Shown in pieces: positions 1-13,035 of a stretch of DNA of 13,035 bases. The position numbers and the translations under genes are program-made. The stretch is taken from positions 1 to 13,035 of the IMG/VR virus record IMGVR_UViG_2690316210_000016; one strand, given 5' to 3'. The notes beneath the pieces were generated by a model. It saw only the letters and a list, made by a program, of their open reading frames with translations, did not search any database and had not been told where the DNA came from. The stretch comes from a virus. Taxonomy: Duplodnaviria; Heunggongvirae; Uroviricota; Caudoviricetes. Numbering within the stretch: position 1 is the first letter of the stretch; every line of letters starts with the position of its first letter.

Positions 1-1230
1 ATGAGCAGAGCACTTAACAAACTGAGCGATACACAGCTGAGGAAAATCAACGGCACACCCGCCCAAAAAACAGCTTTTCTTAATGACGGTGGAAACCTGA
101 GCGTCAGGCATTCAACCAGCGGCCTTTTAACCTGGTATTTCACCTACAGGGCCGGAACGGGAAGGGGAGCACGACCGGAACGGATTAAGCTGGGAAATTA
201 TCCTGATCTGAGTCTGAAAGCTGCCAGGGAAAAAGCGGCACAGTGTCGCGCTTGGCTTGCTGAGGGGAAAAATCCACGTCATGAGATGAATTACACCGTA
301 CAGAAAGCGTTAAAGCCCGTAACGGTTGGCGATGCGCTTACCTACTGGCTTGAGTCTTACGTAAAGGAAAACCGCGTGGATTATGCCGCCCTGAAAAAGC
401 GCCTTAATAATCACGTAATACAGCACATTGGTGCTATGCCGCTGGATAAATGCGAGCTACGGCACTGGCTGGCCTGTTTTGACCAGGTGGCAAAGCGAAC
501 GCCTGTTACTGCCGGATTCTTGCTACAGACGTGCAAACAGGCGCTTAAGTTCTGCCGGAGGCGGCGCTATGCAATCAGCAACGTTCTTGATGATATGAGT
601 GTGGCGGACGTTGGGAAAAAACCGGATATAAGCGAGCGTGTCTTAAGCACCAAAGAACTTGGCGAATTATTGCAGGCACTGGACAAAAAAATATTTTCCC
701 CTTACTACGTCGCACTAATCCGCCTCCTGATTGTTTTCGGATGCCGGACGGTAGAACTGAGGTTATCGGAGATCAGCGAGTGGGATTTTACCGAAATGCT
801 CTGGACCGTGCCGAAAGAACACAGCAAAACGAAGGTGGCAATATTCCGGCCCATACCGGAAGCAATACTGCCGTTCGTCACGCAGCTGGTGGAGCAGAAC
901 AGGCACACGGGCTTATTGCTGGGGGAAGTGAAACAGGAAACAAGCGTGTCGCAGTACGGCAGATTAGCGCACAGGAGGCTAAAACACCCTCACTGGTCAC
1001 TGCATGACATCCGGCGCACCTTTACAACGATGCTGAACGATTTAGGCGTGGATCCTCACGTCGTGGAGCAGCTTACAGGTCATCAGATGCCAGGGATGCA
1101 ACGAGTCTATAACCATTCCCGTTATCTGGATGCGAAACGTGACGCGCTGGATATGTGGACGGAGCGGTTAGGGATACTGGCGGGAACACATGAAAACGTA
1201 ACCACATTGCCAATAGCCAGAGAAATATAA
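1..1230 (+). CDS. int: Tyrosine site-specific integrase (phage integrase family), 409 aa
   Basis: Full ORF from ATG at position 1. C-terminal region has the catalytic-domain pattern (HDIRRTF...GHQMPGMQRVYNHSRY, i.e. His/Arg box and a tyrosine near the end). N-terminal part resembles the arm-binding domain of P4-type integrases. Family assignment is from memory, no search run. Confidence 0.88.
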   Translation: MSRALNKLSDTQLRKINGTPAQKTAFLNDGGNLSVRHSTSGLLTWYFTYRAGTGRGARPERIKLGNYPDLSLKAAREKAAQCRAWLAEGKNPRHEMNYTVQKALKPVTVGDALTYWLESYVKENRVDYAALKKRLNNHVIQHIGAMPLDKCELRHWLACFDQVAKRTPVTAGFLLQTCKQALKFCRRRRYAISNVLDDMSVADVGKKPDISERVLSTKELGELLQALDKKIFSPYYVALIRLLIVFGCRTVELRLSEISEWDFTEMLWTVPKEHSKTKVAIFRPIPEAILPFVTQLVEQNRHTGLLLGEVKQETSVSQYGRLAHRRLKHPHWSLHDIRRTFTTMLNDLGVDPHVVEQLTGHQMPGMQRVYNHSRYLDAKRDALDMWTERLGILAGTHENVTTLPIAREI

Positions 1231-1260
1231 TTTTTTTTGCGATTTTTCAGGATGCGGACA

Positions 1261-1315
1261 ACGTGAAACAACGAGACACAACGACGAACAACAAGGAACA
1301 AAATGGAACAACGGG
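1261..1315. repeat. Five tandem ~10-11 bp GAACAAC-type repeats between int and alpA
   Basis: Direct reading: tgaaacaacga / gacacaacgac / gaacaacaag / gaacaaaatg / gaacaacggg, at roughly one helical turn spacing. A second CA-rich repetitive stretch (gacacaatcc gacacaaccc aacccaataatccaccc) lies at about 1513..1565. Confidence 0.4.
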
Positions 1316-1595
1316 TTAAAAATCAGCCATCGTAATAACCATTTGATTTTTATAGGTGTACTGTTTTTTTATACACTGGCGAATCACTCTTAAAAATATG
1401 TAAAAAAGGCGTAAAAGTAAAATTTTATGCCTTTGCATCATAATGAATTAAAAGAGTTTTTATTCTCATTCCCCCTGCTTCTGTAAAACGACCGCCGCCA
1501 GTGTTTGCCATTCCACAAACACCCTGACACAATCCGACACAACCCAACCCAATAATCCACCCAATGACTCTTTAAGAAACAACAAAGGGGGAATT

Positions 1596-1784
1596 GTGTT
1601 AAGCACAGATCGCTTTATACGTGAAAAAGAATGTCAGCAACTTACAGGCCTGAGCCGCTCATGTCGGTACCGCCTGGAAAAAGCCGGACAATTCCCATCA
1701 CGGCGTAAGCTGGGCGGTCGTTCCGTTGGCTGGTCTTTATCCGAAGTTCTGGCATGGAAGGACAGCTGCGAGGCAGTTCACTAA
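1596..1784 (+). CDS. alpA: AlpA-family small DNA-binding regulator / excisionase-like protein, 62 aa
   Basis: GTG start at 1596 preceded by aaaggggg. Translation (FIREKECQQLTGLSRSCRYRLEKAGQFPSRRKLGGRSVGWSLSEVLAWK) matches the AlpA/CP4-57 regulator HTH pattern. Its position just after int is typical of satellites and integrative elements. Confidence 0.8.
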   Translation: MLSTDRFIREKECQQLTGLSRSCRYRLEKAGQFPSRRKLGGRSVGWSLSEVLAWKDSCEAVH

Positions 1785-1836
1785 TCAGGCTGGCGGCACA
1801 CAGCCGCCACCCATCCACTAATACAGAGATCTAACC

Positions 1837-3261
1837 ATGAATACTGGATATTCTCCCGAACAAGGGCGGGGCTTCGTTCGTCCTGAAAAACAGAATCTGC
1901 AAAATTTTGCCGAAATTATTCCGGTTATTTCCGGCCTTACTGGCGGGAGTGAAACCAATATTGTTAACGCCAGAGCGTTGCAGATGTTTGATGATAAAAA
2001 GGGAGTAAATTTAACTTACACCCCTGACGGCAATCAGAATATGAGCATTATCTCTGAGTCAGGTTTCTACAAACTAATAAAAACAAAAAGCGCCCCGTTG
2101 CCGGAGCGCCTTTGTGAACAATTAACCTACTGCGCAAAAAATGAATCTGAGCAGTGGGATTATATCAACCATGTGGAGAAGCGCCACAATTGCCGAATAA
2201 CGGGCAAAACAAAGGCCACCCGCTACGGTGGCCCCTCGACACAAGCTACACGTTATCCCCAACGCATGAGCATTGCCAACAATGCCACATTTGCGGCTGG
2301 TGGGCAATGCAATCAGTCTGGTTCAGTTCGTTGCCATACCTGCAATGAGCGCTTTTCCCTGTACTCTTTAAGGAATTGCTCAAGGGCAAAAGCACATGGC
2401 GCGAATCTTTCTGATTCATGCTCTATCTTTCTGCGCCGTCTTTTCCGTGCCGGTGATAATGTTTTGGTCAATTCTTTATCGGTCATTGTGTTGTCCTGCA
2501 TAGCAATGCGCCGTAATACCTTACACCACGGCGCTGATGGTGATTACTCTGGTTCTTTGGTCTTGCGGCGCTGGAGTTCTTCACGTGCGACAGTGACGAG
2601 CTGCCCGATCTCCTCGGCGGCTTTGATTCCGAGTTTTTCCACCTGCGCCAGTGCATCGAGCGAAGAAACCAGGGGATTTTCTCCACTTCCTTCTGCCTGG
2701 CGCCGGGCGATCTCACCGCGTACAGCCGTAACTATAAAATTCGCTTTAGTTTCCCCTGGCTGTAGGGATGCCTCAATGCCACTCACTACTTCATGTGGAA
2801 ATCTGGCATTCAGTTGCTGTGACTTATTGTTAACAGAACTCCTGGACATGTTTGCACCTCCCATTAATAACGGGATGCAGTGTAATACAAAAGTGAATAC
2901 CAAAAAAGACTTGAAATGGTATTCACCTAAATGTAATGTGAATACCACAAGTGCTGATACATGCAATTCAGCAATTGAAACGACGAAGCCCCGCACTGTT
3001 GGAGCAGTAACGGGGCTTCTAACCACCAACGATAACGAGAGTATCGAGGTAGCTATGAGAAATCATACCACACACCCGCAAGGGCGGGACTCGCACAACC
3101 TGAATAAATACATCTGGCGTTTTATCGCCCTGAGCACTGCACAACCGCGCGTGATTACCATTGAGGCCACCAGCGAACAGGAAGCACGCCAGCAATCCCC
3201 GGCTGGCTGCGTGATGGTATTCGCTGCCCGTATTCGTCAGGAGGTGTGCCATGTGCAATAA
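1837..3261 (+). CDS. Questionable 474-codon ORF; only the first ~90 codons look protein-like (antirepressor / Bro-N-like segment)
   Basis: Residues ~50-85 (MFDDKKGVNLTYTPDGNQNMSIISESGFYKLIKTKSA) resemble the C-terminal half of a Bro-N/antirepressor domain, but the N-terminal half does not match well. From about nt 2150 onward the translation is Cys/Ser/Arg/Thr-rich and looks non-coding. The ORF also runs antisense through a well-supported minus-strand gene (2544..2849) and through a repeat-rich regulatory region. Probably a gene remnant plus a chance open frame. Confidence 0.25.
   Translation: MNTGYSPEQGRGFVRPEKQNLQNFAEIIPVISGLTGGSETNIVNARALQMFDDKKGVNLTYTPDGNQNMSIISESGFYKLIKTKSAPLPERLCEQLTYCAKNESEQWDYINHVEKRHNCRITGKTKATRYGGPSTQATRYPQRMSIANNATFAAGGQCNQSGSVRCHTCNERFSLYSLRNCSRAKAHGANLSDSCSIFLRRLFRAGDNVLVNSLSVIVLSCIAMRRNTLHHGADGDYSGSLVLRRWSSSRATVTSCPISSAALIPSFSTCASASSEETRGFSPLPSAWRRAISPRTAVTIKFALVSPGCRDASMPLTTSCGNLAFSCCDLLLTELLDMFAPPINNGMQCNTKVNTKKDLKWYSPKCNVNTTSADTCNSAIETTKPRTVGAVTGLLTTNDNESIEVAMRNHTTHPQGRDSHNLNKYIWRFIALSTAQPRVITIEATSEQEARQQSPAGCVMVFAARIRQEVCHVQ
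2544..2849 (-). CDS. Hypothetical small protein (102 aa), possible island regulator
   Basis: Minus-strand ATG (complement of cat at 2847..2849) sits 6 nt after a strong Shine-Dalgarno (GGGAGGTG on the minus strand). The longer upstream extension in the ORF track (to 3029) is hydrophobic junk, so the internal start is preferred. It faces away from the replication operon across operator-like repeats. No family recognised. Confidence 0.45.
   Translation of the reverse strand: MSRSSVNNKSQQLNARFPHEVVSGIEASLQPGETKANFIVTAVRGEIARRQAEGSGENPLVSSLDALAQVEKLGIKAAEEIGQLVTVAREELQRRKTKEPE
2881..3019. promoter_or_regulatory. Operator-like repeats (GTGAATACC direct and inverted) and a 9-bp-stem hairpin in the divergent intergenic region
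   Basis: GTGAATACC at 2893..2901 and 2938..2946, its inverse GGTATTCAC at 2918..2926; TGTAAT at 2881 and 2932. Hairpin GAAGCCCCG (2985..2993) / CGGGGCTTC (3011..3019) with no downstream T-tract. Lies between the minus-strand gene and the plus-strand operon starting at 3251. Confidence 0.35.
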
Positions 3262-3475
3262 CACCCGTCCGGACGCAGCCGCCGAAGCCATCATAACGCT
3301 AATGCATGCGCTGATTGATATTTCTGTTATTGCTGACAGGGCGCATAAACACGCAGTCAGAGAATCAGAATGCATCTTCCATTATTTAGCATTTGTGCAG
3401 CTAAAAGCCGATCAGGCACTGGATAAGGCCGGAAAAATTATCATGGCTGATGTGCAGGAGGTGCACCATGCATAA
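3251..3475 (+). CDS. Hypothetical protein, 74 aa
   Basis: ATG at 3251 preceded by AGGAGG (caggaggtgtgccATG). Its stop overlaps the start of the next ORF (atgcataa), indicating translational coupling. Confidence 0.55.
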   Translation: MCNNTRPDAAAEAIITLMHALIDISVIADRAHKHAVRESECIFHYLAFVQLKADQALDKAGKIIMADVQEVHHA

Positions 3476-3833
3476 CCTGTCAATTTCTGACCTTAACAGC
3501 ATTCAGTTTGACGAGAAATTTACCGGGCAGTTGCTGGTCAATGTGGAGAACGGGCGCATAGTGCGTAATTATCACCTGCCGGATGGTGCAATTGCCGGAA
3601 GCGTTGAAGCATTGCTGGAACTGGCGGAACGTGCGCGACTGATTAAGCCGTCAACGAGCCATCACGATGATGATCTGCATTTTACCGGATGTATGGTGAG
3701 TCACTACGAAAACGGCGTCGAGGTATCCTGCGAACGGCTGCGTGATGATTGCTGTTTCGGCACACTGCCGGAATTTATCGAGTTGCTGACCAGTTGCGGT
3801 TATCAGGTCATTCAGGGGGGTAAACATGCGTGA
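3468..3833 (+). CDS. Hypothetical protein, 121 aa
   Basis: ATG at 3468 preceded by AGGAGG (caggaggtgcaccATG). The ORF-track start at 3450 would place the SD inside the coding sequence, so 3468 is preferred. No recognisable domain. Confidence 0.55.
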   Translation: MHNLSISDLNSIQFDEKFTGQLLVNVENGRIVRNYHLPDGAIAGSVEALLELAERARLIKPSTSHHDDDLHFTGCMVSHYENGVEVSCERLRDDCCFGTLPEFIELLTSCGYQVIQGGKHA

Positions 3834-4059
3834 TGATCGTTTTAATTCCCTGAAACAGGAATTTTCCGGCGTTCCTGATGATGCGGCTGATGCGCTTTCG
3901 TCAATGCCAGAACTTATTAGAGCGGCTTTTTTCTTACTTTCCACGAGAGAATATAAATCAACGGGGCTTGATGTACTGAATATCGCCGCCGATTATGCGG
4001 AATATGTGGCAGAGGCGCGTTACAGAAGAAAATTTCCTGAGGATGTAAGCCATGCGTGA
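3826..4059 (+). CDS. Hypothetical protein, 77 aa
   Basis: ATG at 3826 after a GGGGGG run; start overlaps the previous stop. Acidic small protein, no family recognised. Confidence 0.5.
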   Translation: MRDDRFNSLKQEFSGVPDDAADALSSMPELIRAAFFLLSTREYKSTGLDVLNIAADYAEYVAEARYRRKFPEDVSHA

Positions 4060-4285
4060 TATTTACCACGAAACAATAGACCGCGCATTTCTTGCACTTT
4101 CTCACAGTGAAAACATGCTGGAAATATTGCGCATATGGCTTGAAACACTTGGCGACAATGAACGCGACAAACAAAAATCAAGAATTGCCACGGCATTAAT
4201 AACGCTTCTTGAGCCTGTAATAATGGAACTGCAAGAAATAGATCTATTGCACGACAGATATAAAGAACAGCACACCGGAGAATAA
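4052..4285 (+). CDS. Hypothetical protein, 77 aa
   Basis: ATG at 4052 after GAGGA; overlaps the previous stop. No family recognised. Confidence 0.5.
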   Translation: MRDIYHETIDRAFLALSHSENMLEILRIWLETLGDNERDKQKSRIATALITLLEPVIMELQEIDLLHDRYKEQHTGE

Positions 4286-4290
4286 AAATA

Positions 4291-4590
4291 ATGAAACTTA
4301 AATATTCTGGCTTAACTGCCAGTGGCAACACTCACCCTAAATTTACGCGCGGTGATATTTACCGCGACCAGTACGGCGGCACGGTAATGATTAAGGGCGT
4401 GGAAGAACGGCGTGTAACCTACCGCCGTGAAGGTTACGAATATGATTGCGTGATGCCTGTTTATCAGTTCCGGCGTGATTTTTCTCTGGTGCAGACCGCG
4501 CCGCATAACGTGCCCACCAGCAACGCCAGGGCACGGGCAAACATCCAGAAGCTGAAAACCATGATTAACGGATTCAGGGGTAAAAAATGA
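4291..4590 (+). CDS. Hypothetical protein, 99 aa
   Basis: ATG at 4291 after GGAGA; its stop overlaps the primase start (ATGA). No family recognised. Confidence 0.5.
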   Translation: MKLKYSGLTASGNTHPKFTRGDIYRDQYGGTVMIKGVEERRVTYRREGYEYDCVMPVYQFRRDFSLVQTAPHNVPTSNARARANIQKLKTMINGFRGKK

Positions 4591-6341
4591 AACTGGCACC
4601 GAACGTAAAACAGCAGTCACGCGGCATAAAACACAAAGGAACAGAAGTCATTATTTTTGCGGGTAGTGATGCCTGGGCACACGCGAAACAATGGCAGGAA
4701 CATGATGCGCGTATGGCCGGAGATAATGAGCCTCCTGTGTGGCTTGGGGAGCAGCAGTTATCAGAACTGGATAAGCTGCAAATTGTGCCGGAAGGCAGAA
4801 AATCCGTGCGCATATTCAGGGCCGGATATCTTGCGCCAGTAATGATAAAGGCGATTGGCCAGAAGCTGGCGGCGGCAGGCGTACAGGATGCAAATTTTTA
4901 CCCTGATGGTATGCACGGTCAGAAGGTGGAGAACTGGCGCGAATATCTGGCCCGTGAGCGCCAGAATCTTTCTGATGGTCTGGTCATTGAGCTTCCGGTA
5001 AAGCAAAAGGCGCAACTTTCGCAGATGGCGGACAGTGAGCGCGCGCAGCTGCTTGCCGATCGCTTTGATGGCGTTTGCGTACATCCTGAAAGTGAAATCG
5101 TTCACGTATGGCGCGGCGGGGTATGGTGTCCGGTCAGCACAATGGAACTTAGCCGCGAAATGGTGGCGATCTATTCAGAGCACAGGGCCACTTTCAGCAA
5201 GCGCGTAATCAATAACGCCGTGGAAGCGTTAAAAGTTATTGCCGAACCAATGGGCGAGCCGTCCGGCGATTTGCTGCCGTTCGCCAATGGTGCGCTTGAC
5301 CTGAAAACGGGGGAATTTTCCCCGCACACGCCGGAGAACTGGATCACCACGCACAACGGCATTGAGTACACGCCACCAGCACCCGGGGAGAACATCCGCG
5401 ATAACGCGCCAAACTTTCATAAATGGCTTGAGCACGCAGCCGGAAAAGACCCGCGCAAGATGATGCGTATATGTGCCGCGCTGTACATGATTATGGCGAA
5501 CCGGTACGACTGGCAGATGTTTATTGAGGCCACCGGAGACGGCGGGAGCGGTAAAAGTACATTCACACACATAGCCAGCCTTCTGGCAGGGAAACAAAAC
5601 ACGGTAAGCGCTGAAATGACATCGCTTGATGATGCTGGTGGGCGTGCGCAGGTTGTCGAGAGTCGTCTTATCGTCCTGGCTGACCAGCCGAAATATACAG
5701 GCGAAGGAACGGGCATCAAGAAAATCACGGGCGGCGACCCCGTGGAAATTAACCCGAAATATGAAAAGCGTTTCACGGCGGTAATCAGGGCGGTGGTGCT
5801 GGCGACCAACAACAACCCGATGATATTCACCGAACGGGCCGGAGGTGTGGCACGTCGTCGCGTGATTTTCCGTTTCGACAATATCGTCAGTGAGGCCGAA
5901 AAAGACAGGGAGCTACCGGAAAAGATTGCGGCTGAAATCCCTGTGATTATCCGCCGATTGCTGGCGAACTTTTCCGACCCTGAAAAGGCACGGGCTTTAC
6001 TCATTGAACAGCGTGACGGTGATGAAGCACTGGCGATAAAGCAGCAAACGGATCCGGTTATTGAGTTTTGCCAGTTCCTGAATTTTCTGGAGGAAGCGCG
6101 CGGCCTGATGATGGGTGGCGGTGGCGATTCAGTGAAGTACACGACCAGGAACAGCCTTTACCGCGTCTATCTGGCGTTTATGGCATACGCAGGCAGGAGC
6201 AAACCGCTAAACGTAAATGACTTTGGCAAGGCTATGAAGCCTGCCGCAAAAGTTTACGGACATGAATATATTACGCGGAAAGTTAAGGGGGTAACGCAGA
6301 CTAACGCAATAACAACAGACGAGTGCGACGCGTTTTTATAA
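4587..6341 (+). CDS. Replication initiator: P4-type primase C-terminal / SF3 helicase (D5-like NTPase) protein, 584 aa
   Basis: Walker A P-loop EATGDGGSGKSTF (nt ~5534..5557) followed by a Walker-B-like hydrophobic stretch ending in D (RLIVLADQ). Overall resemblance to the P4-alpha / PICI pri-rep NTPase domain, and an iteron array lies directly downstream. Family from memory, no search run. Confidence 0.82.
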   Translation: MKLAPNVKQQSRGIKHKGTEVIIFAGSDAWAHAKQWQEHDARMAGDNEPPVWLGEQQLSELDKLQIVPEGRKSVRIFRAGYLAPVMIKAIGQKLAAAGVQDANFYPDGMHGQKVENWREYLARERQNLSDGLVIELPVKQKAQLSQMADSERAQLLADRFDGVCVHPESEIVHVWRGGVWCPVSTMELSREMVAIYSEHRATFSKRVINNAVEALKVIAEPMGEPSGDLLPFANGALDLKTGEFSPHTPENWITTHNGIEYTPPAPGENIRDNAPNFHKWLEHAAGKDPRKMMRICAALYMIMANRYDWQMFIEATGDGGSGKSTFTHIASLLAGKQNTVSAEMTSLDDAGGRAQVVESRLIVLADQPKYTGEGTGIKKITGGDPVEINPKYEKRFTAVIRAVVLATNNNPMIFTERAGGVARRRVIFRFDNIVSEAEKDRELPEKIAAEIPVIIRRLLANFSDPEKARALLIEQRDGDEALAIKQQTDPVIEFCQFLNFLEEARGLMMGGGGDSVKYTTRNSLYRVYLAFMAYAGRSKPLNVNDFGKAMKPAAKVYGHEYITRKVKGVTQTNAITTDECDAFL

Positions 6342-6356
6342 TTTTTTGTAATTGCT

Positions 6357-6580
6357 GTCTACCCTGTCTACCTGAGTAAAGAAAAATACATTTAATTCAG
6401 TGCATTAAGTTAGGTAGATAGCCTTTTTTTACTGTCTACCCACTATCTACCCTCTCTACCTGATTTTACCTGAATCAGACAGGGAGGTAGACACGGGGTA
6501 GATAGTGGATAAAAGCACTCTACCCCGCTGAAATCCGCGCCATTACTGGCATGAGGGCCACTAAGGTAGATAAGGTAGAC
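6357..6580. repeat. Iteron array, putative replication origin
   Basis: About 11 copies of the heptamer GTCTACC / GGTAGA(C/T) within 225 bp. Mostly GTCTACC-type in the left cluster (6357, 6366, 6434, 6445, 6454) and GGTAGAC/T-type in the right cluster (6486, 6497, 6565, 6574), with one GGTAGAT at 6413 and one CTCTACC at 6518. An AT-rich stretch (6374..6412) lies inside the left cluster. Confidence 0.7.
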
Positions 6581-6629
6581 AAGGGGAGGCACAACTCAAA
6601 ACTTTTTAAACGAGGGGGTAAAAATAAAT

Positions 6630-6908
6630 ATGCACACTTCAGGGAAATTTAATAAATCACTCAAAAAACGCAGAGACAGAACAGAACCGAAATATCGCGC
6701 GTTAGACATGACAGAGCACGCTTTAAAGGTGGCAATCAGAACGATAGACCGACACGTAGGGGAAGGATACGCGAAGGAACATCCCGACCTGATAAGCGCA
6801 TTCATGACCACAGCAGCGGCAAACTTTGCCACGCTGACAGAACGGGAGATTGCCGAAGCGGAACAGGTAACAACCATCAACGTTAAAACCGGAGAGGTGG
6901 AATCATGA
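6630..6908 (+). CDS. Hypothetical protein, 92 aa
   Basis: ATG at 6630 preceded by GAGGGGG; its stop overlaps the start of the SSB-like gene (ATGA). No family recognised. Confidence 0.5.
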   Translation: MHTSGKFNKSLKKRRDRTEPKYRALDMTEHALKVAIRTIDRHVGEGYAKEHPDLISAFMTTAAANFATLTEREIAEAEQVTTINVKTGEVES

Positions 6909-7315
6909 CAGCACAGATAGCAGCTTACGGGCGGCTGGTGGACGACCCGCAGGTAAAACAGACCAGCAAGGGCACACCAATGACGCTGGCACGTATGGCG
7001 GTATCGTTGCCATGTAGTCAGGCGCAGGATGGGCAGGCTACGTTATGGCTATCGGTGATGGCATTTGGTAAGCAGGCCGACTTCCTGGCTAAACATCAAA
7101 AAGGCGACGTTGCCAGCGTATCCGGCACGATGCAGGTCAGCCAGTGGACCGGACAGAACGGGGAAACGCGGCAGGGTTATCAGGTTATTGCAGACAGCGT
7201 AATCAGTGCCCGTGCGGCACGTCCTGGCGGGAACAGACGCAAAACCACAGGCACACAGGGTAATCAGCCACCAGCGGGAGGCGATGACCCTTACGGTGAT
7301 GATATTCCGTTCTGA
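6905..7315 (+). CDS. ssb: Single-stranded DNA-binding protein homolog (short, 136 aa)
   Basis: OB-fold-like N-terminal region, a Gly/Pro/Gln-rich linker, and a C-terminal acidic tip GDDIPF that corresponds to the conserved DDDIPF tail of bacterial SSB. Confidence 0.78.
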   Translation: MTAQIAAYGRLVDDPQVKQTSKGTPMTLARMAVSLPCSQAQDGQATLWLSVMAFGKQADFLAKHQKGDVASVSGTMQVSQWTGQNGETRQGYQVIADSVISARAARPGGNRRKTTGTQGNQPPAGGDDPYGDDIPF

Positions 7316-7325
7316 GGGGGTGAGG

Positions 7326-7574
7326 ATGGTACATGACCGCATAGCGGAGGAACTCGAGGCAAAAGGCTTTTACCGGAGGGCGGCGGCACGATGGGGTGAA
7401 GTCATGCAACTGGTGGAGACAGACAAGGAACGGCATCAGGTTACGATGCGACGGCTGGAATGTTCCAGGAAGGCACAGAGGCCACCGGAGCCGCCAACGG
7501 AGAACTATGCAGACCTGAGAAATGCAGTAAATCGCACTTACGCAGACATGGGGCTGAGCAAATTAGCAGAGTAG
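7326..7574 (+). CDS. PerC/Pch-family-like small transcriptional activator, 82 aa
   Basis: ATG at 7326 after GGGGG, in frame with the ORF-track entry 7206..7574, whose upstream part overlaps ssb and is probably not translated. The motif IAEELEAKGFYRRAAARWGEVM resembles the conserved N-terminal motif of PerC/Pch regulators as I recall it. Confidence 0.5.
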   Translation: MVHDRIAEELEAKGFYRRAAARWGEVMQLVETDKERHQVTMRRLECSRKAQRPPEPPTENYADLRNAVNRTYADMGLSKLAE

Positions 7575-7597
7575 GAATACCAGAACCACACCACACA

Positions 7598-7619
7598 GCC
7601 GGAGCAATCCGGCTTTTTT
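7598..7619 (+). terminator. Rho-independent terminator
   Basis: GCCGGA-GCAA-TCCGGC hairpin followed by TTTTTT. Confidence 0.6.
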
Positions 7620-7631
7620 GCGCCCAAAAAA

Positions 7632-7668
7632 AGCCCGATAAGGTCAGAGGTGGCTTATCGGGCTTTTG
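7632..7668. terminator. Second hairpin terminator, probably bidirectional
   Basis: Perfect 11-bp stem AGCCCGATAAG / CTTATCGGGCT with an 11-nt loop, flanked by an A-run upstream and TTTT downstream. Confidence 0.6.
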
Positions 7669-7744
7669 CATATGAGGTTTTTTGGTGCACTGACACACAT
7701 GATCGGGATAATCATTTCATAATTTGCAACGCAACTCAATATCA

Positions 7745-7797
7745 TTGCACAAAATGCAATCATGATTATAATCATAACTGGATGAACATCCAGTTAT
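7745..7797 (+). promoter_or_regulatory. Sigma70-type promoter of the capsid module overlapped by two perfect palindromic operators
   Basis: TTGCAC (7745..7750), 16-bp spacer, TATAAT (7767..7772). Perfect 14-bp palindrome ATGATTATAATCAT (7762..7775) overlaps the -10. Perfect 24-bp palindrome ATAACTGGATG-AA-CATCCAGTTAT (7774..7797) covers the predicted transcription start. Confidence 0.55.
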
Positions 7798-7828
7798 GAT
7801 TTTTTAAGTCAAAGAGGAATTTCTTACT

Positions 7829-8035
7829 ATGGCTGAAGAGAAAAAAGGCGGTGTTTCGGTGTACATAAGCCCCGACATCGTGAAGGCGCTCAAGGAACGC
7901 CACCAGCAGAACGTAAAAGCAGGCATTGCGGCAGGACTTGATCCGCTGGCGATGGTTGAGCCGTCAACAGGCTGGCAGGTACGCGCCTATTTACGCGCGG
8001 CGCTGGGTATGAATCAGGTTCACGGGGGTGAATAA
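7829..8035 (+). CDS. Hypothetical protein, 68 aa, first gene of the capsid module
   Basis: ATG at 7829 after AAGAGGA; stop overlaps the capsid gene start (TAATG). No family recognised. Confidence 0.55.
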   Translation: MAEEKKGGVSVYISPDIVKALKERHQQNVKAGIAAGLDPLAMVEPSTGWQVRAYLRAALGMNQVHGGE

Positions 8036-9090
8036 TGACAGTAAAAGCAATGGCACTTAACACTAACCAGCTTTTTGCGTACCTGAATCGCGGGGATATT
8101 GCGGAATTTAAATTCAGTCCGCTGTTTACCACGCTGTTTTTCCCGAACGTGGCGACATTCAGCACGCAAAACATCATGCTGGATACCCTGGACATTGAAG
8201 AAGTCACCATGTCGGCGTTTTGTTCGCCTATGGTGGGTAGCCAGGTTCAGCGCGATAAAGGGTACGAAACCAGCACGATTAAACCTGGCTACATGAAGCC
8301 AAAGCACGAAATCGATCCAACGAAAACCATCATGCGCATGGCTGGAGAAGATCCGGCACAGCTTAACGACCCTACCTATCGCCGTATGCGCCTGATTACT
8401 GGCAATATGCGCCGCCAGATAAACGCCATAAAAGCGCGCGTGGAATGGCTGGCGGTAAATGCGGTAACGACCGGAAAAAACATCATTGAAGGCGAAGGCA
8501 TAGAGCGCTATGAAATCGACTGGAAGATACCGGAAAAAAACATCATAGAGCAGGCCGACGGGAAAAAATGGTCAGAGCAGGACAAAGAAACCCACGATCC
8601 AATCTATGATATCGAACTATACGCCGATCAGGCTGGTTGCCCCGCAAACGTCATGATTATGGGCGCTGAGGTATGGCGAACGTTACGCAGCTTTAAAAAA
8701 TTCCGTGAGCTGTACGATCTTTCCCGTGGTTCAGAGTCCGCCGCAGAGCTGGCCTGTAAAAACCTGGGCGAAGTGGTGAGCTTTAAAGGCTATCTGGGCG
8801 ATATTGCCCTTATCGTCTATTCCGGCAAATACACTGACAGCGACGGCACAGAAAAATATTTCCTTGAGCCTGATTTGCTTGTCCTGGGCAACACCAACAA
8901 TAAAGGGCTGGTGGCCTATGGTGCGATTATGGATCAGGACGCAGTAAGAACGGGCGCAACGCAAAACATGTTTTACCCGAAAAACTGGATTGAGGACGGC
9001 GATCCGGCGATTGAGTACGTGCAGACGCACAGCGCACCGCAGCCGGTTCCGGCAGATATTCGCAAATTTGTTACCGTCAAAATTGGTTAA
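8035..9090 (+). CDS. Major capsid protein, lambda gpE-like (HK97 fold family), 351 aa
   Basis: Multiple blocks match lambda gpE as recalled: KPGYMKPKHEIDP vs TPGYVKPKHEVNP; DPTYRRMRLITGNMR vs DPAYRRRRIIMQNMR; VSFKGYLGDIALIVYSGKY vs VSYKGMYGDVAIVVYSGQY; LLVLGNTNNKGLVAYGAIMDQDA vs TMVLGNTQARGLRTYGCIQDADA; YPKNWIEDGDPAIEY vs YPKNWVTTGDPAREF. Length is similar to gpE (341 aa). Confidence 0.9.
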   Translation: MTVKAMALNTNQLFAYLNRGDIAEFKFSPLFTTLFFPNVATFSTQNIMLDTLDIEEVTMSAFCSPMVGSQVQRDKGYETSTIKPGYMKPKHEIDPTKTIMRMAGEDPAQLNDPTYRRMRLITGNMRRQINAIKARVEWLAVNAVTTGKNIIEGEGIERYEIDWKIPEKNIIEQADGKKWSEQDKETHDPIYDIELYADQAGCPANVMIMGAEVWRTLRSFKKFRELYDLSRGSESAAELACKNLGEVVSFKGYLGDIALIVYSGKYTDSDGTEKYFLEPDLLVLGNTNNKGLVAYGAIMDQDAVRTGATQNMFYPKNWIEDGDPAIEYVQTHSAPQPVPADIRKFVTVKIG

Positions 9091-9101
9091 CGGGGGATTC
9101 T

Positions 9102-9437
9102 ATGGACACTCCATACATTGAGTTATTTGCAGGCAGTCAGCAGGTCGCCACGACGCTGGTACATTTTGCCGCTGATGCTGGCGTTATTCAGGAATTTACC
9201 CCGCTGATGCTGGCGGACAATGGCGAGTTTAAGCCGTGGGATGGTAAGGAATCTGGCAAGGCTGTTTATCTGACCTCGTACCCTGTGGACACGTCAAAGC
9301 AGAAATCAGCACAGTGTTACAAGACGGGGATATTCAATATTGCCGCCGTTAACTGGCCTGAGAGCGTCGACACCGATGCGAAAAAATGCGCCGCCTTTGC
9401 GGGTTCCGGCGTATCCGTTCAGCCGCTGGCCCGATAA
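9102..9437 (+). CDS. Head decoration protein, lambda gpD-like, 111 aa
   Basis: Matches lambda gpD (110 aa) as recalled: TPLMLADNGEFKPWDG vs TPLMLDTSSRKLVAWDG; CYKTGIFNIAAVNWPESVDTDAKKCAAFAGSGVSV vs [35 protein letters not shown]. Preceded by GGGGGAT. Confidence 0.85.
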   Translation: MDTPYIELFAGSQQVATTLVHFAADAGVIQEFTPLMLADNGEFKPWDGKESGKAVYLTSYPVDTSKQKSAQCYKTGIFNIAAVNWPESVDTDAKKCAAFAGSGVSVQPLAR

Positions 9438-9449
9438 GCAGGGGGAACG

Positions 9450-9863
9450 ATGGCAACGAATGAAAGCATCATGACGCTACCGCTGGCGAGTAAATTTAAA
9501 GCCGAAGCGCGGGCAATGGCTGACAGAGGTTTATCAACCTATGAGGCCGTATATCAACTAAACAAACTGGAAGAGCAGGACAAGCCGCGCGCTGATGCGA
9601 TTATGGCGCTTCATGAGCATAAAGACTATCAGCCGCTGTTGCGTGCAATGGCAAACGTGCCTTGTATCGATGTTGGTACGGCTAAAAGCATCCTTAGCAT
9701 GACCATAGAGCAGGAACGTCCGAAGGTTGCGCCGGAACTTACCGCAGCCTTTGAAAACTTTATGGACATGCACAGCCCGCAAGCCGTATCAGCTGGCATG
9801 GCATACGATGGCAGAAACCAGGGCGATGACGGCGACATCGATCGCATACTGAAAACCATCTGA
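9450..9863 (+). CDS. Hypothetical protein, 137 aa, last gene of the capsid module
   Basis: ATG at 9450 after AGCAGGGGGAAC. No similarity to lambda FI/FII that I can recognise. Confidence 0.55.
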   Translation: MATNESIMTLPLASKFKAEARAMADRGLSTYEAVYQLNKLEEQDKPRADAIMALHEHKDYQPLLRAMANVPCIDVGTAKSILSMTIEQERPKVAPELTAAFENFMDMHSPQAVSAGMAYDGRNQGDDGDIDRILKTI

Positions 9864-9869
9864 GACAAG

Positions 9870-9891
9870 GCCGGAGAAATCCGGCTTTTTT
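9870..9891 (+). terminator. Rho-independent terminator
   Basis: GCCGGA-GAAA-TCCGGC hairpin followed by TTTTTT; nearly identical to the terminator at 7598..7619. Confidence 0.6.
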
Positions 9892-9892
9892 A

Positions 9893-9957
9893 CGGGTCCT
9901 TCCTGGAATTATGGCCCGTTACGGGGCGGCGACCTCGCGGGTTTTCGCTATTTATGA
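9893..9957 (+). other. cos site copy A: lambda-type cosQ-cosN junction with only the first ~22 bp of cosB
   Basis: Contains GTTACG-GGGCGGCGACCT-CGCGGGTTTTCGCTATTTATGA, matching the lambda end junction (12-nt cohesive end GGGCGGCGACCT at 9924..9935, recalled from the lambda genome). The preceding CGGGTCCTTCCTGG resembles the lambda right end ACGGGTCCTTTCCGG. No R-type repeats follow before the Nu1-like gene. Confidence 0.8.
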
Positions 9958-10024
9958 CGTTTTCCCGTGAAGGTGACACCACCACCACTTGATTAATATT
10001 TAACCATGCAGTTAAGGTAACATT

Positions 10025-10459
10025 ATGATTGATAAAGCTTGTTTTGTAAGTCAGCAGGAAATAGCTGAACATTTCAAGGTTAACAGAACCACTATTCGCG
10101 CATGGACCAAACAGGGGATGCCGTATCTTAATGCGGATCGCGGAAAGTCTGGCGGTTATCACATCGGGCATACATTGCTTTGGTCTTCAGGTAAAAGCCG
10201 TCTTGAGGCCATCAGATATCACGTAGAAACCAGTGCGCTGGAAAAAATTATGTTTGCCAGGCTGCTTTCATCTGAGCGTGACGAGTACTCCAGTGAAGAA
10301 ACAGAACATCGATTTGATGAAGGTTTGCAGATTTACGGCTATTCACCGGAAGATGTGAGCAAGGCACGAAATAAAATGGCTGGCTTTCTGGCTGGGTGGC
10401 GTCATGCCGTAAGCGTTCGCCGTGCCAGCATGGAGCAATCAGCCGATACAGAACAGTAA
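10025..10459 (+). CDS. Small terminase subunit homolog (lambda gpNu1-like N-terminal winged-HTH domain), 144 aa
   Basis: VSQQEIAEHFKVNRTTIRAWTKQGMPYLNADRGKSGG aligns with lambda Nu1 VNKKQLADIFGASIRTIQNWQEQGMPVLRGGGKGN. Shorter than Nu1 (181 aa), and the C-terminal half is unrelated. No large terminase subunit gene is present in the window. Confidence 0.72.
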   Translation: MIDKACFVSQQEIAEHFKVNRTTIRAWTKQGMPYLNADRGKSGGYHIGHTLLWSSGKSRLEAIRYHVETSALEKIMFARLLSSERDEYSSEETEHRFDEGLQIYGYSPEDVSKARNKMAGFLAGWRHAVSVRRASMEQSADTEQ

Positions 10460-10527
10460 AGCCGATAACTTGTTAATCACTCGCAGCAATGCATGTGATT
10501 TGTGCACACTTTCGGTTAACTGGTTCG

Positions 10528-10705
10528 ATGTCCGGTTTTAGTGTCTGTTTTTTGCGCATGTCCGGTTCATGGAAAGCATGTTTTTATATTTTTCATATGG
10601 TTAACTTGCAGAGAAACCGGACATGGATCCCGAAAAATTTTCATAAATAGTGAAAACGCGCGAGGTCGCCGCCCCGTAACGGGCCATAATTCCAGGAAGG
10701 ACCCG
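10528..10705 (-). other. cos site copy B (inverted): cosQ-cosN plus a complete cosB-like region with three R-like repeats and an AT-rich tract
   Basis: Read on the minus strand: cosQ-like at 10675..10705, cosN (AGGTCGCCGCCC on plus) at 10663..10674, then TATTTATGAAAATTTTCGGG, matching lambda TATTTATGAAAATTTTCCGG. R-like decamers ATGTCCGGTT at 10528..10537 and 10558..10567 and the inverse AACCGGACAT at 10615..10624, with an AT-rich tract at 10570..10612. This mirrors the lambda cosN-R3-I1-R2-R1 layout but with a different repeat sequence. Confidence 0.75.
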
Positions 10706-10738
10706 ACGACACCAGACTATCAGAACGATGGGGGCACA

Positions 10739-11020
10739 ATGACAGAAGCCGAAATACTGCGATTAATCCGCCGCGTTGCCGGAATCAGCCAGCAGGCCGA
10801 CGAACAGACCACGCAGCCGGACAGCGTGACCGCCGAAAATTATGTTCGTGTGGTTGCTGAGATGATTCGCCGTAATGGTATCCAGCTTAATGATGTGGAT
10901 ATGCGCAACATACGGATCCGCGTTCTTGAAATGCTGGCCTACAATCGCCGCGTGGCACTGTATCGGGAAACGGAGAAAATTACGTACCACTGGAAGAAGC
11001 CGGAGCGGTTGCGGCGGTAA
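10739..11020 (+). CDS. Hypothetical protein, 94 aa, distal to cos
   Basis: Start chosen at ATG 10739 (GGGGG upstream). The ORF-track start at 10541 would translate through cos copy B. No family recognised. Confidence 0.45.
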   Translation: MTEAEILRLIRRVAGISQQADEQTTQPDSVTAENYVRVVAEMIRRNGIQLNDVDMRNIRIRVLEMLAYNRRVALYRETEKITYHWKKPERLRR

Positions 11021-11070
11021 CTGGTTGATATTTTCGAAATTCGCCAGCGGCGAACATCGGGGAAACCAGC

Positions 11071-11187
11071 CTAACCCGTTGATATTTTCGGGAACCTCAA
11101 ATTGAGGAGGTCGGAAACATAACCCGTCATATTCTGGATGCTGATAATTACCACGCAGCCCATTAAGGCCTAACCCGTTGATTCTTC
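11071..11187. repeat. Three direct repeats of TAACCCGT(T/C)(G/A)AT at ~48-bp spacing
   Basis: ctaacccgttgatattttcg (11071), cataacccgtcatattctgg (11119), cctaacccgttgattcttcc (11168); also ttgatattttcg at 11024. Confidence 0.4.
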
Positions 11188-11193
11188 CACAAT

Positions 11194-11356
11194 CCCCCAT
11201 TGGGGGAGGCTGGGCGGCCTGCTGTGGGCTTTTCCACCATTGGTGGAAAGGCGCACATCTGGATCATCATTACGGTGATCAAGGGTATGTAAAACCCACC
11301 AGCCTGATTGACATTTAACCGGAAAAAAGCCAGGTAGCCCCATTATGGGGATCCCC
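11194..11356. repeat. Cluster of GC-rich palindromes with a CCATTGG-type core
   Basis: CCCCCA-T-TGGGGG (11194..11206), TTTCCACCA-T-TGGTGGAAA (11231..11249), CCCCAT-T-ATGGGG (11338..11350) overlapping GGGGATCCCC (11347..11356). Confidence 0.4.
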
Positions 11357-11574
11357 ATATCGACATTAACGCCCCTCATGAATTGGCGCGCTTCCCCCTG
11401 GAAAGATGACCCGCCTGTATATTTCTTGTGTCTATTTGTTCCACGTTGTTTCATACAGTGCAACGATCGGTGTAGTTAATGGTGTAGTCAATTTGCGATT
11501 TTTAGCACTTTTTGCAGTGCAAATCATTTAATTAAATCAATGACTTGCCTTGATGTAGTGATAAAAGGACATAT

Positions 11575-13035
11575 TTATTCATCTTTCGGCGCAGAATGCT
11601 GGCGACCAAAAATCACCTCCATCCGCGCACCGCCCAGCATGCTCTCTCCGGCGACGATTTTACCCTCATATTGCTCGGTGATTTCGCGGGCTACCGCCAG
11701 CCCTACACCTTGCCCAGGGCGTAAAGTATCAACCCGTTGACCACGGTCGAAAATGACCTCTCGCTTGCTTAATGGAATACCGGGGCCATCATCCTCGACC
11801 ACAATATAGAGATGCTCGTCGGTTTGCCTTGCAGAAATTTCGACAAACTCGAGGCAATATTTACAGGCATTATCCAGCACGTTGCCCATCACCTCGACAA
11901 AATCGTTCTGCTCACCGACAAAGCTGATCTCTGGCGAAATATCGAGAGAGATATTGACCCCTTTGCGTTGATACACTTTGTTCAGCGCTGAGGTGAGATT
12001 GTCCAGCAGTGGGGCGACCGGATGCAGCTCGCGGCTGAGCAATGTCCCGCCGCGCATACTGGCACGATGCAGGTAGTAGCCAATTTGCTGTGAAATGCGG
12101 CTGATTTGCTCCAGCATTACCGGCTCAGCATCACTGACGCTCATCTTTTCACTACGCAGAGAACGCAGCGTACTTTGCAGCACCGCCAGTGGCGTTTTCA
12201 GACTATGGGTCAGGTCGGTGAGCGTCGTACGGTATTTGTCGTAACGTTCGCGTTCACTTTTTAACAATCGGTTCAGGTTTCGTACCAGACTGGTCAGTTC
12301 TCGCGTTGTGGCTGGATTGAGCAATTCGCGGTTATGTTCTTCCAGTTCGCGGACTTCTTTTGCCAGGGCTTCGATGGGGCGTAAACTCCACCAGGCGGCG
12401 ACCCACAGCAGCGGGATCACTAACAGCAGATTGGCTGAGAGCACATAGATAAACCAGCTCCAGACCATATAGGAACTTTTTAGCTCCACCGGAATGGTAT
12501 CCACCACCACAATGGTTAATTTTGGCATCCGCGATGTTGCCGGGTAGACGTTTACTGCCACCGAGTGGGTCATCTCCGCGTCGTCATCATCTTCCCGCAC
12601 TTCCTGCAACTGTTGCTGTATCGAATGATCTCCACTCAGCAAGAGGCTGGTATCGTTAACATCCGCTTCAATTTCATGAAAACCATTCGATTTCAGCCAG
12701 TCAGGCTGGATCATCTTCATCAGCCAGGGCACGTCACGTTGCGCCCATAAAAGCTGCCCGTTCTCATCATAAATTAGCGTCATGGTGGGGCTTTGCTTGT
12801 CGATATTTTCGGGTAACTCGACATGCAACTTATTGTTTTCCCACTTCGCAAGGGTATAGAACAGATTGCTCTCGCCACGTAACAGCCGAAACGTAGTTTT
12901 ATCGAAACTGACGCTATAACCGATCAGCGCGACCATTCCGTAGGCAAGCGAAAGCACCAGTACTACCGCAGCCGTTGCCAACAGAAAACGTACCCGCAGC
13001 GAGAGCGGGAAAAAAAGACGCAGTAATTTTTTCAT
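11575..13035 (-). CDS. phoQ: Sensor histidine kinase PhoQ, 486 aa, complete
   Basis: Translation matches E. coli PhoQ as recalled, including the periplasmic acidic patch EDDDDAE, the H-box HSLKTPL and the C-terminal ATP-binding domain. The start codon is the last three bases of the window. Confidence 0.93.

Follow-up and report, generated by a model that had tools for sequence, protein, structure and literature searches.

The window analyzed here is the whole stretch of 13,035 nucleotides that makes up positions 1 to 13,035 of the IMG/VR record IMGVR_UViG_2690316210_000016. It was found to be a ~98% nucleotide-identical variant of the CFT073 island, PICI EcCICFT073, a well-known phage satellite of E. 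coli that serves as the model Gram-negative phage-inducible chromosomal island (PICI), and the island sits between roxA and phoQ. The island displays the features by which a Gram-negative PICI is recognized: int at the left, alpA, rightward genes, pri-rep together with an iteron origin, an att site, and rpp, in a size of ~11–12 kb and with no lysis or tail genes. The features of the window are as follows.

1–1230, + strand: int (integrase); the window opens at its start codon, and attL lies upstream of the window
1596–1784, + strand: alpA, the helper-dependent activator of the rightward genes (function from PMC6092414)
Between 2575 and 3825: regulatory/Icd zone, which differs from CFT073
4587–6341, + strand: pri-rep, a 584-aa replicase with D5_N, DUF5906, and P4-family primase C-terminal domain
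6349–6586, no strand: replication origin, many TCTACC/GGTAGA iterons oriented both ways around A/T-rich stretches (organization according to PMC6092414)
6630–6908, + strand: orf92, PHROG phrog_1231, unknown function; overlaps the ssb start
6891–6900, + strand: Shine-Dalgarno-like GGAGAGGTGG, 4 nt upstream of the ssb ATG (read from the sequence)
6905–7315, + strand: ssb, 136 aa, ATG start and TGA stop (profile, PHROG, PDB, and AlphaFold2 evidence)
6905–7213, + strand: predicted OB-fold core of the ssb product, residues 1–103 (AlphaFold2, Foldseek, alignment with E. coli SSB, dN/dS)
7214–7282, + strand: linker, residues 104–126, predicted disordered and poorly conserved; basic, then Gly/Gln/Pro-rich
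7283–7312, + strand: acidic C-terminal tip DDPYGDDIPF, SSB-Ct-like (sequence, family comparison)
7326–7574, + strand: perC-family regulator gene, in the same cassette as ssb
7597–7624, + strand: terminator-like hairpin (7597–7614) and T-run, 3' of perC (consensus scan only)
8035–9090: lambda-E-like capsid gene
9102–9437: lambda-D-like decoration gene
9450–9863: orf137
10025–10459, + strand: rppA (c1503 in CFT073), its position held by an ORF of 144 aa; redirects helper TerS and causes lambda interference
11458–11493, no strand: attR core, a 36-bp match (30 bp exact) to the CFT073 sequence upstream of int; the right end of the island
Beyond attR, − strand: chromosomal phoQ

The iteron origin thus lies between pri-rep and the orf92/ssb pair. 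The sequence-only reading had placed a 136-aa protein at this position, and the frame was found as described, on the + strand and running from ATG to TGA. Its product is 100% identical to RefSeq WP_000126698.1 of CFT073, which bears the name 'single-stranded DNA-binding protein'. The stop codon of orf92 and the start codon of ssb share an ATGA at 6905–6908, and this overlap suggests that the two genes may be translationally coupled. The perC-family gene begins 11 nt past the ssb stop codon, and the terminator-like hairpin that follows it possibly marks the end of an orf92-ssb-perC unit. Scans of the window for tRNA genes and Rfam families gave no matches; in other words, no RNA element accounts for the ssb region.

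To which protein family does the product belong? In profile searches, the island SSB matched the Pfam SSB model PF00436 (E=4.8e-17, 62.4 bits; cutoff 26), the NCBIfam model TIGR00621 (58.5 bits against a cutoff of 53.95), and the PHROG family phrog_44, 'single strand DNA binding protein' (E=1.8e-40). A phmmer search of the PDB recovered 31 SSB chains, the best at E 2.4e-12. An AlphaFold2 model made from 39 homologues predicts an OB core spanning residues 1–103, in which most 10-residue blocks have a pLDDT of 87–93 and the loops 72–78. Strands are predicted at residues 2–11, 16–19, 25–35, 45–54, 69–82, and 88–101, and a helix at residues 55–62. This layout agrees with the OB fold, whose five-stranded beta barrel has an alpha helix between strands 3 and 4 as well as L23 and L45 hairpins. 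Residues 104–136 have a pLDDT below 50 and are predicted to form an unstructured tail. Foldseek comparison of the model with the PDB returned bacterial SSB OB domains in 50 of the 50 listed matches, with a probability of 1.00 and a target TM of 0.59–0.82. An OB-fold-like region had been noticed earlier from the letters alone, and the predicted core, the Foldseek matches, and the PF00436 and TIGR00621 scores above their cutoffs bear it out. Together, profiles and model confirm the island SSB as a member of the bacterial-type SSB family with a predicted OB fold, a disordered linker, and an acidic tip, a match well outside what chance would produce. It is presumably a homotetramer. An identity as PriB, a single OB fold of ~104 aa encoded in the rpsF-priB-rpsR operon, was rejected because the protein has a linker and a tip and is borne on an island; the NCBIfam profile search gave no PriB model match for it.

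A close known reference is the E. coli SSB (EcSSB; PF00436/TIGR00621; PDB 1eqq and 1eyg), whose sequence was checked and is identical to PDB 1eqq_A. The two proteins share the OB fold topology, the disordered linker, and an acidic tip with a DDIPF end, but they are only 26% identical across the OB core. Among the four aromatic residues of EcSSB that stack on ssDNA (W40, W54, F60, and W88), three are kept in the island SSB. W54, F60, and W88 correspond to W48, F54, and W81, which are invariant across the island SSB family, whereas W40 gives way to Cys37, part of an SLPC motif particular to the family. In place of H55, a tetramer residue of EcSSB, the island SSB has Leu49, and its L23 loop is shorter by 3 residues. 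The description of the protein as a short SSB holds, since it has 136 aa compared to 178 aa in EcSSB. The difference arises mainly from the linker, which is ~25 aa long with a basic start (NRRK) in the island SSB, and ~55–60 aa long and Gly/Gln-rich in EcSSB. The C-terminus reads DDPYGDDIPF in the island SSB and PPMDFDDDIPF in EcSSB. The DDIPF ending reported in the earlier reading is therefore present and equals the last five residues of EcSSB, and the likeness extends upstream to an aromatic residue at −7 in both proteins. Compared with the SSB-Ct consensus D-F-D-D-D-I-P-F, in which the carboxylate of the terminal Phe is free, the island sequence P-Y-G-D-D-I-P-F appears to be a matching tip. 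Proteins that bind such a tip in bacterial SSBs include chi, PriA, RecQ, ExoI, and DnaG.

Despite this likeness at the tip, the island SSB does not derive from a recent copy of the host gene. It scores 27 bits against PRK09010, the model of the enterobacterial chromosomal SSB, and 24.4 bits against PRK13732, the model of the F-type plasmid SSB, whose cutoff is 265 bits. These scores and the 26% identity to EcSSB indicate a separate SSB lineage, and an origin as a recent copy of either the host ssb or the F-plasmid ssb was rejected on the same grounds. Recent capture from a helper phage was likewise rejected, because the INPHARED phages contain no relative of the island SSB above ~35% identity.

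Is the host-like tip a peculiarity of this island? When 1.84 billion cluster representatives were searched exhaustively, 320 relatives of the island SSB emerged at E<=1e-10, mostly of 125–150 aa. For the best-listed representatives with 120 aa or more (116 in total), the count was 38 acidic-[ILVM]PF endings, 26 acidic-...-F endings, and 8 other endings in F. Judged by these endings, tip retention is the rule in the short-SSB lineage, and its presence in the window is hence unremarkable. An acidic tip is likewise kept by PF00436 SSBs of plasmids and of many phages. A comparison of 30 family loci was consistent with this picture. The terminal Phe was present in 25 of the 30, and acidic residues made up 31% of the tip compared to 7% of the core. 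Pairwise identity anchored at the C-terminus was 0.38 over the last 4 residues and 0.34 over the last 8, and fell to 0.21 at positions −9 to −16 and to 0.12 at positions −17 to −32, within the linker. Linker length ranged from 25 to 48 residues across the family loci. Such a gradient is the standard signature of a folded domain joined by a disordered linker to a functional short linear motif.

The tip is not uniform across the family. In other genera, tips depart from IPF and read, for example, DDDF, DDETPF, or DDEAPF. To our knowledge, the host SSB tip is invariant. Island tips that differ from an invariant host tip argue against a need to imitate the host exactly. Within E. coli, an O157:H7 allele has the ending DDISF, which is equivalent to P176S, the ssb-113 change that impairs partner binding, indicating that tip function may be relaxed or retuned in some islands. 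A co-variation of the tail variant with the type of replicase, which would hint at a contact between tail and replicase, was rejected, because the pattern tracks the SSB phylogeny, and replicases of the D5_N/P4 and RepA types have been swapped with the SSB nearly unchanged.

One alternative use of such a tip is in recombination. Here the tip would bring the helper's single-strand annealing protein (lambda Red-beta or a RecT), or host RecA mediators, to island ssDNA and thereby favor recombination-dependent replication, with the concatemers that cos packaging requires. Packaging of the island uses the cos/TerS pathway of the helper, and island DNA forms concatemers. Furthermore, Red-beta reads at least the last 7 residues of EcSSB, FDDDIPF (bioRxiv 10.1101/2020.04.14.041095), and the corresponding residues of the island SSB are YGDDIPF. 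However, the exact tail is already available on the host SSB, AlpA overexpression yields concatemeric island DNA without a helper, and the SSB family is found alongside many helpers, with a tip that in some genera is unlike the host tail. These observations make the role of a recombination cofactor quite improbable.

The gene is widespread. Of 5426 complete E. coli genomes, 1784 carried an ssb homologue, and a single genome had as many as 6. The homologues occupied 2326 places, of which 2324 were chromosomal. Among the 120 best 90%-identity E. coli clusters, the protein had 136 aa in 66, 140–141 aa in 26, and 149 aa in 9; the proteins of 136, 140, 141, and 149 aa are indel variants of the linker. 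The tips of these 120 clusters were mostly GDDIPF (67) or GDNIPF (25), followed by SDDIPF (6), GDGIPF (4), and GDDISF (4). When the window allele was compared with other alleles by the Nei-Gojobori method, dN/dS was 0.045–0.16 in the OB core and 0.25–0.39 in the tail where it could be estimated. Purifying selection on the OB core is strong. These data bear on the view that ssb is a decaying or neutral SSB copy that travels with the replication module and has no present function. A fragment with rep and ori suffices for replication, and some alleles have a compromised tip (DDISF) or are truncated, as in the family members L002 (104 aa) and L026, which is what a dispensable passenger would look like. 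On the other hand, the low dN/dS of the core, the presence of the gene in a third of E. coli genomes, and its intactness in nearly all 30 loci and in many genera despite rapid turnover of its neighbors make this view very unlikely.

The main functional evidence for the role of ssb comes from synteny, that is, from what the gene order suggests. A scan with one genome per species yielded 23 loci in Enterobacterales. The loci span Escherichia albertii, Edwardsiella, Klebsiella, Enterobacter, Leclercia, Kluyvera, and Shimwellia, among others, with Pluralibacter, Pectobacterium, Serratia, Erwinia, Budvicia, and Rosenbergiella as further genera. In 21 of the 23 species-level loci, a primase-helicase gene on the same strand preceded ssb by no more than ~1.1 kb. 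Most of the 23 loci had an integrase upstream, and an AlpA homologue was detectable in about half. The spacer between replicase and ssb nearly always contained an iteron array, built from a 7-mer repeated 4–12 times, and at least 8 iteron sequences were seen. The same replicase-iteron-ssb order was found in four more E. coli islands and in two enterobacterial plasmid-borne copies. The additional E. coli islands include the O157:H7 island at the roxA-phoQ site and a satellite inside a prophage portal gene.

Although the order is constant, the replicase is not. The replicases that precede ssb belong to three unrelated families: the D5_N/P4 type, a RepA-family helicase, and a larger zinc-binding primase-helicase. 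The SSBs remained 54–69% identical while these three families and at least 8 iteron types were exchanged, and a neighbor-joining tree of the OB cores likewise showed replicases swapped with the SSB nearly unchanged. The SSB encoded in the window, next to a D5_N/P4 replicase, is for instance ~96% identical to that of locus L029, which has a RepA replicase. An SSB that stays constant while replicases and iterons are swapped is more likely to have constant partners, such as DNA and host factors, than to be fitted to one replicase. A useful analogy is T7 gp2.5. This ssDNA-binding protein has an acidic tail ending in Phe and recruits polymerase and helicase-primase. It serves as an analogy only, since it belongs to another SSB family, is a dimer, and has phage-encoded partners, unlike the island SSB. 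The change of replicase family with the SSB retained argues against a replicase-specific tail contact of the gp2.5 kind.

The genes adjacent to ssb are less constant. Across the family, the slot upstream of ssb is either empty or taken by one of at least 6 unrelated ORFs; within E. coli, the ORFs found there belong to three unrelated families. The idea that orf92 is a conserved partner of the SSB was therefore rejected, as the same slot is variable or empty in other family loci. A perC gene follows ssb in about ten loci. Because the coupled small ORF is variable and perC is limited to about ten loci, the conserved unit consists of replicase, iteron origin, and ssb. This arrangement adds to the founding descriptions of EcCICFT073, in which the replication module comprises pri-rep and ori; here, ssb belongs to the same locus. 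The two founding papers contain no mention of an SSB (PMC6092414, PMC6739421). In a later classification of Gram-negative PICI genes, the 'Replication' category comprises Primase, SSB, and DUF5906, and these genes colocalize with mapped origins (PMC10111431). A literature search found no functional study of a PICI SSB in the form of a mutant, a binding assay, or over-expression from EcCICFT073.

The position of ssb also bears on a possible link with defense. PICIs often carry defense cargo, and several defense systems respond to phage SSBs or to the ssDNA that they present. An island SSB could mask ssDNA or SSB signals from retron-Eco8, Hna, AbpAB, or DARNA, or it could act as a trigger or decoy and so shape the success of the helper. 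However, neither ssb, orf92, and pri-rep nor the accessory ORFs matched a defense family in PADLOC. In addition, ssb lies in the replication module rather than in an accessory hotspot and is kept with replicases across 23 species. A defense-related function is accordingly highly improbable.

What, then, does the island SSB do? We assign a probability of about 0.7 to the following reading. The island SSB is a genuine PF00436 SSB that forms a standing, accessory component of the replication module; it would coat ssDNA at the origin and be linked through its tip to host replisome proteins. The framework for this reading comes from published work on the island. Helper phages induce alpA, and AlpA switches on the island genes (PMC6092414). 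Pri is needed for island replication, and deletion of pri-rep lowers transfer about 100-fold (PMC6092414). When rep and ori were cloned into a temperature-sensitive vector, the construct replicated autonomously in DH5alpha and apparently needed no island ssb (PMC6092414). As this construct apparently replicates without it and the host SSB can substitute, the island SSB would be accessory and not essential, and any effect that it has would be quantitative.

The proposed sequence of events begins with two steps that the literature has shown. A helper (lambda, phi80, or the resident prophage) turns on alpA, whose product activates the rightward genes, and Pri-Rep, a P4-alpha-like origin-binding primase-helicase, fires the iteron origin at 6349–6586. 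Since ssb lies immediately downstream of the origin, the SSB would probably be made in step with replication. Its OB fold may then coat the ssDNA exposed by Pri-Rep through W48, F54, and W81, the residues suggested by alignment. The DDPYGDDIPF tip, carried on a short flexible linker, may dock clients of the host SSB-Ct such as chi, PriA, and repair or recombination enzymes. The most relevant client for the assembly of a P4-alpha-type fork would be chi, a subunit of the Pol III clamp loader. Alpha-driven P4 replication in vitro is not known to require more than alpha, SSB, Pol III holoenzyme, and gyrase. Docking of the tip would couple island forks to the host elongation machinery, and a supply of island SSB could spare the host SSB from depletion during high-copy replication of island and helper.

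The sequence-only reading had offered two uses for an island-encoded SSB with a canonical tip, namely support of island replication or competition with the host SSB for partner proteins during helper infection. The canonical tip is present and the first use fits the replicase-ori-ssb synteny, whereas competition directed against the helper is unsupported. In its full form, the competition model states that the host-like tip sequesters SSB clients, or that the island SSB occupies ssDNA in place of the host SSB, so that helper or host replication is damped to the island's advantage, as a kind of interference. The island tip does equal the last five residues of EcSSB, and uncontrolled AlpA-driven induction of the island harms host growth. 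There is also a precedent in G36P, the SSB of the B. subtilis phage SPP1, which inhibits host replication in vitro (PMC3561973). In SPP1, the SSB, the helicase, and the origin protein are all encoded by the element and work with host polymerases, and the host SSB can replace G36P in the phage replisome (PMC3561973). Nothing comparable to the block of host replication by G36P is known for the island SSB.

An indirect argument against competition comes from genetics. RppA (c1503) accounts for the interference of the island with lambda and phi80, which maps to rppA alone. Deletion of c1503 brings lambda plaques and titers back almost to the levels of an island-free host with ssb still present (PMC6739421). 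Expression of RppA left phage replication unaffected (PMC6739421). The 2019 over-expression screen with pBAD18 that underlies this work began at c1499, the capsid gene, and ssb lies outside the region that it covered (PMC6739421). The placement of ssb beside the origin, outside the interference and packaging region, points to a role in replication. Competition or hijacking is thus an unlikely function of the island SSB.

The accessory-replication reading makes ssb a common and correctly annotated accessory replication gene of a well-studied satellite, and as such it is already known in kind. What is added here is the description of the Gram-negative PICI replication module as a replicase, an iteron origin, and ssb, with interchangeable replicases. 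If the island SSB measurably boosts PICI replication or biases host replisome factors toward the island, it would be a third player, besides Pri-Rep/ori and RppA, in how Gram-negative PICIs outcompete their helpers, and it would be worth including in PICIs that are engineered as delivery vehicles. A bolder version, which we regard as speculative and rather doubtful, is that the SSB is the sole constant protein of a plug-and-play satellite replication module whose replicases and iterons are freely swapped. Its host-like tail on a short linker would let any of these replicases capture Pol III and the primosome, or the helper's Red-beta-type annealase, ahead of helper or chromosomal forks, and the tail variants (IPF, ISF, DDDF, and ExPF) would tune the choice of partner. 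If this replisome capture takes place, the SSB affects the competition between satellite and helper.

Conjugative plasmids provide a parallel to an accessory SSB carried by a mobile element. Plasmid SSBs complement ssb mutants. Like the island SSB, the SSBs of F-family plasmids are PF00436 proteins encoded by a mobile element, have a host-like C-terminus, and are accessory to the host SSB (PMC8406263, PMC9849209). The two differ in setting. Plasmid SSBs are encoded in the leading region and serve incoming conjugative ssDNA, whereas the island SSB adjoins a theta-type iteron origin in a satellite that is packaged as dsDNA. A distant relative of the island SSB on the Sodalis plasmid pSG2 adjoins a relaxase/mobC module.

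Upstream of one SSB lineage lie three unrelated replicase families and at least eight different iteron sequences. The replicases are as follows.

Window 4587-6341: D5_N/P4 primase
L029 (island of E. coli O157:H7 Z869) 6152-7552: RepA-family helicase
L003 (another locus carrying this lineage) 3848-6298: Zn-binding primase-helicase

The O157:H7 island and the CFT073 island share the roxA-phoQ att site and their SSBs are ~96% identical, whereas their replicases differ.

In the E. coli islands (the window and L029-L032), the ssb start (ATGA) is overlapped every time by a small ORF, located as follows.

Window 6630-6908
L029 7753-8004
L030 7555-8004
L031 7747-8004
L032 7702-8004

In these islands the slot is occupied by three unrelated families, namely phrog_1231-like proteins of 83-92 aa, a 149-aa protein, and a 100-aa protein. 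In other genera, the slot upstream of ssb is often without an ORF.

The SSB itself varies at the tip. The protein of the O157:H7 Z869 island (L029 8001-8411) and those of the E. coli clusters P0043, P0049, P0052, and P0064 end in DDISF. In E. coli chromosomal SSB (EcSSB), the ssb-113 mutation (P176S) disables partner binding, and the Pro-to-Ser change in the DDISF island alleles is the same one. This likeness in sequence suggests that tip function is relaxed or altered in the DDISF island lineage. A second motif is found nearer the N-terminus.

Window 7004-7015: SLPC motif, SSB residues 34-37

Cys37 of this motif is conserved across the whole enterobacterial satellite SSB clade, whereas EcSSB has the stacking residue W40 at that position. 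An xPC motif is present in only 9 of the 116 more distant representatives, which are the best-listed relatives of at least 120 aa out of 320 at E<=1e-10.

The SSB lineage is not exclusive to satellites, because a distant member (L004 6998-7477; tblastn match, 55% identity) lies on the mobilizable Sodalis plasmid pSG2, where its neighbours are mobC and a gene for a relaxase-like LPD7 protein, with no primase. In E. coli A0 34/86 (L031 1-16329), a PICI with the same layout (int, alpA, primase, ssb, capsid) interrupts a lambdoid prophage within its portal gene, the helper-embedded configuration described in PMC10111431. The E. coli island at the dinD-yicG site carries a ProQ/FinO-family RNA-chaperone gene between ssb and perC (L030 8467-8934).

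Other parts of the window hold further features.

9450-9863: orf137, phrog_1999
9893-9970 and 10628-10705: 78-nt inverted repeat, arms 90% complementary
1837-3261, plus strand: 474-aa ORF without a family match
2544-3029, minus strand: ORF resembling a YlcI/YnfO-family gene

Located behind the genes for the E-like capsid protein and the D-like decoration protein, orf137 looks like a candidate lambda Nu3-type scaffold; it also has a weaker match to phrog_53, head maturation proteases, in the C-terminal part of those proteases (E=5e-9). The two arms of the inverted repeat bracket rppA (10025-10459) and, on the plus and minus strands alike, produce pseudo-ORFs with mirrored ends ('...NSEN[PA]RGRRPVTGHNSRKDP'). 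The repeat might be related to the island cos or to the RppA-TerS recognition region, or might be a cassette remnant. The 474-aa ORF looks spurious. The window diverges from CFT073 in the region 2575-3825, and in CFT073 the corresponding position carries the annotated YlcI/YnfO-family gene that the minus-strand ORF resembles.
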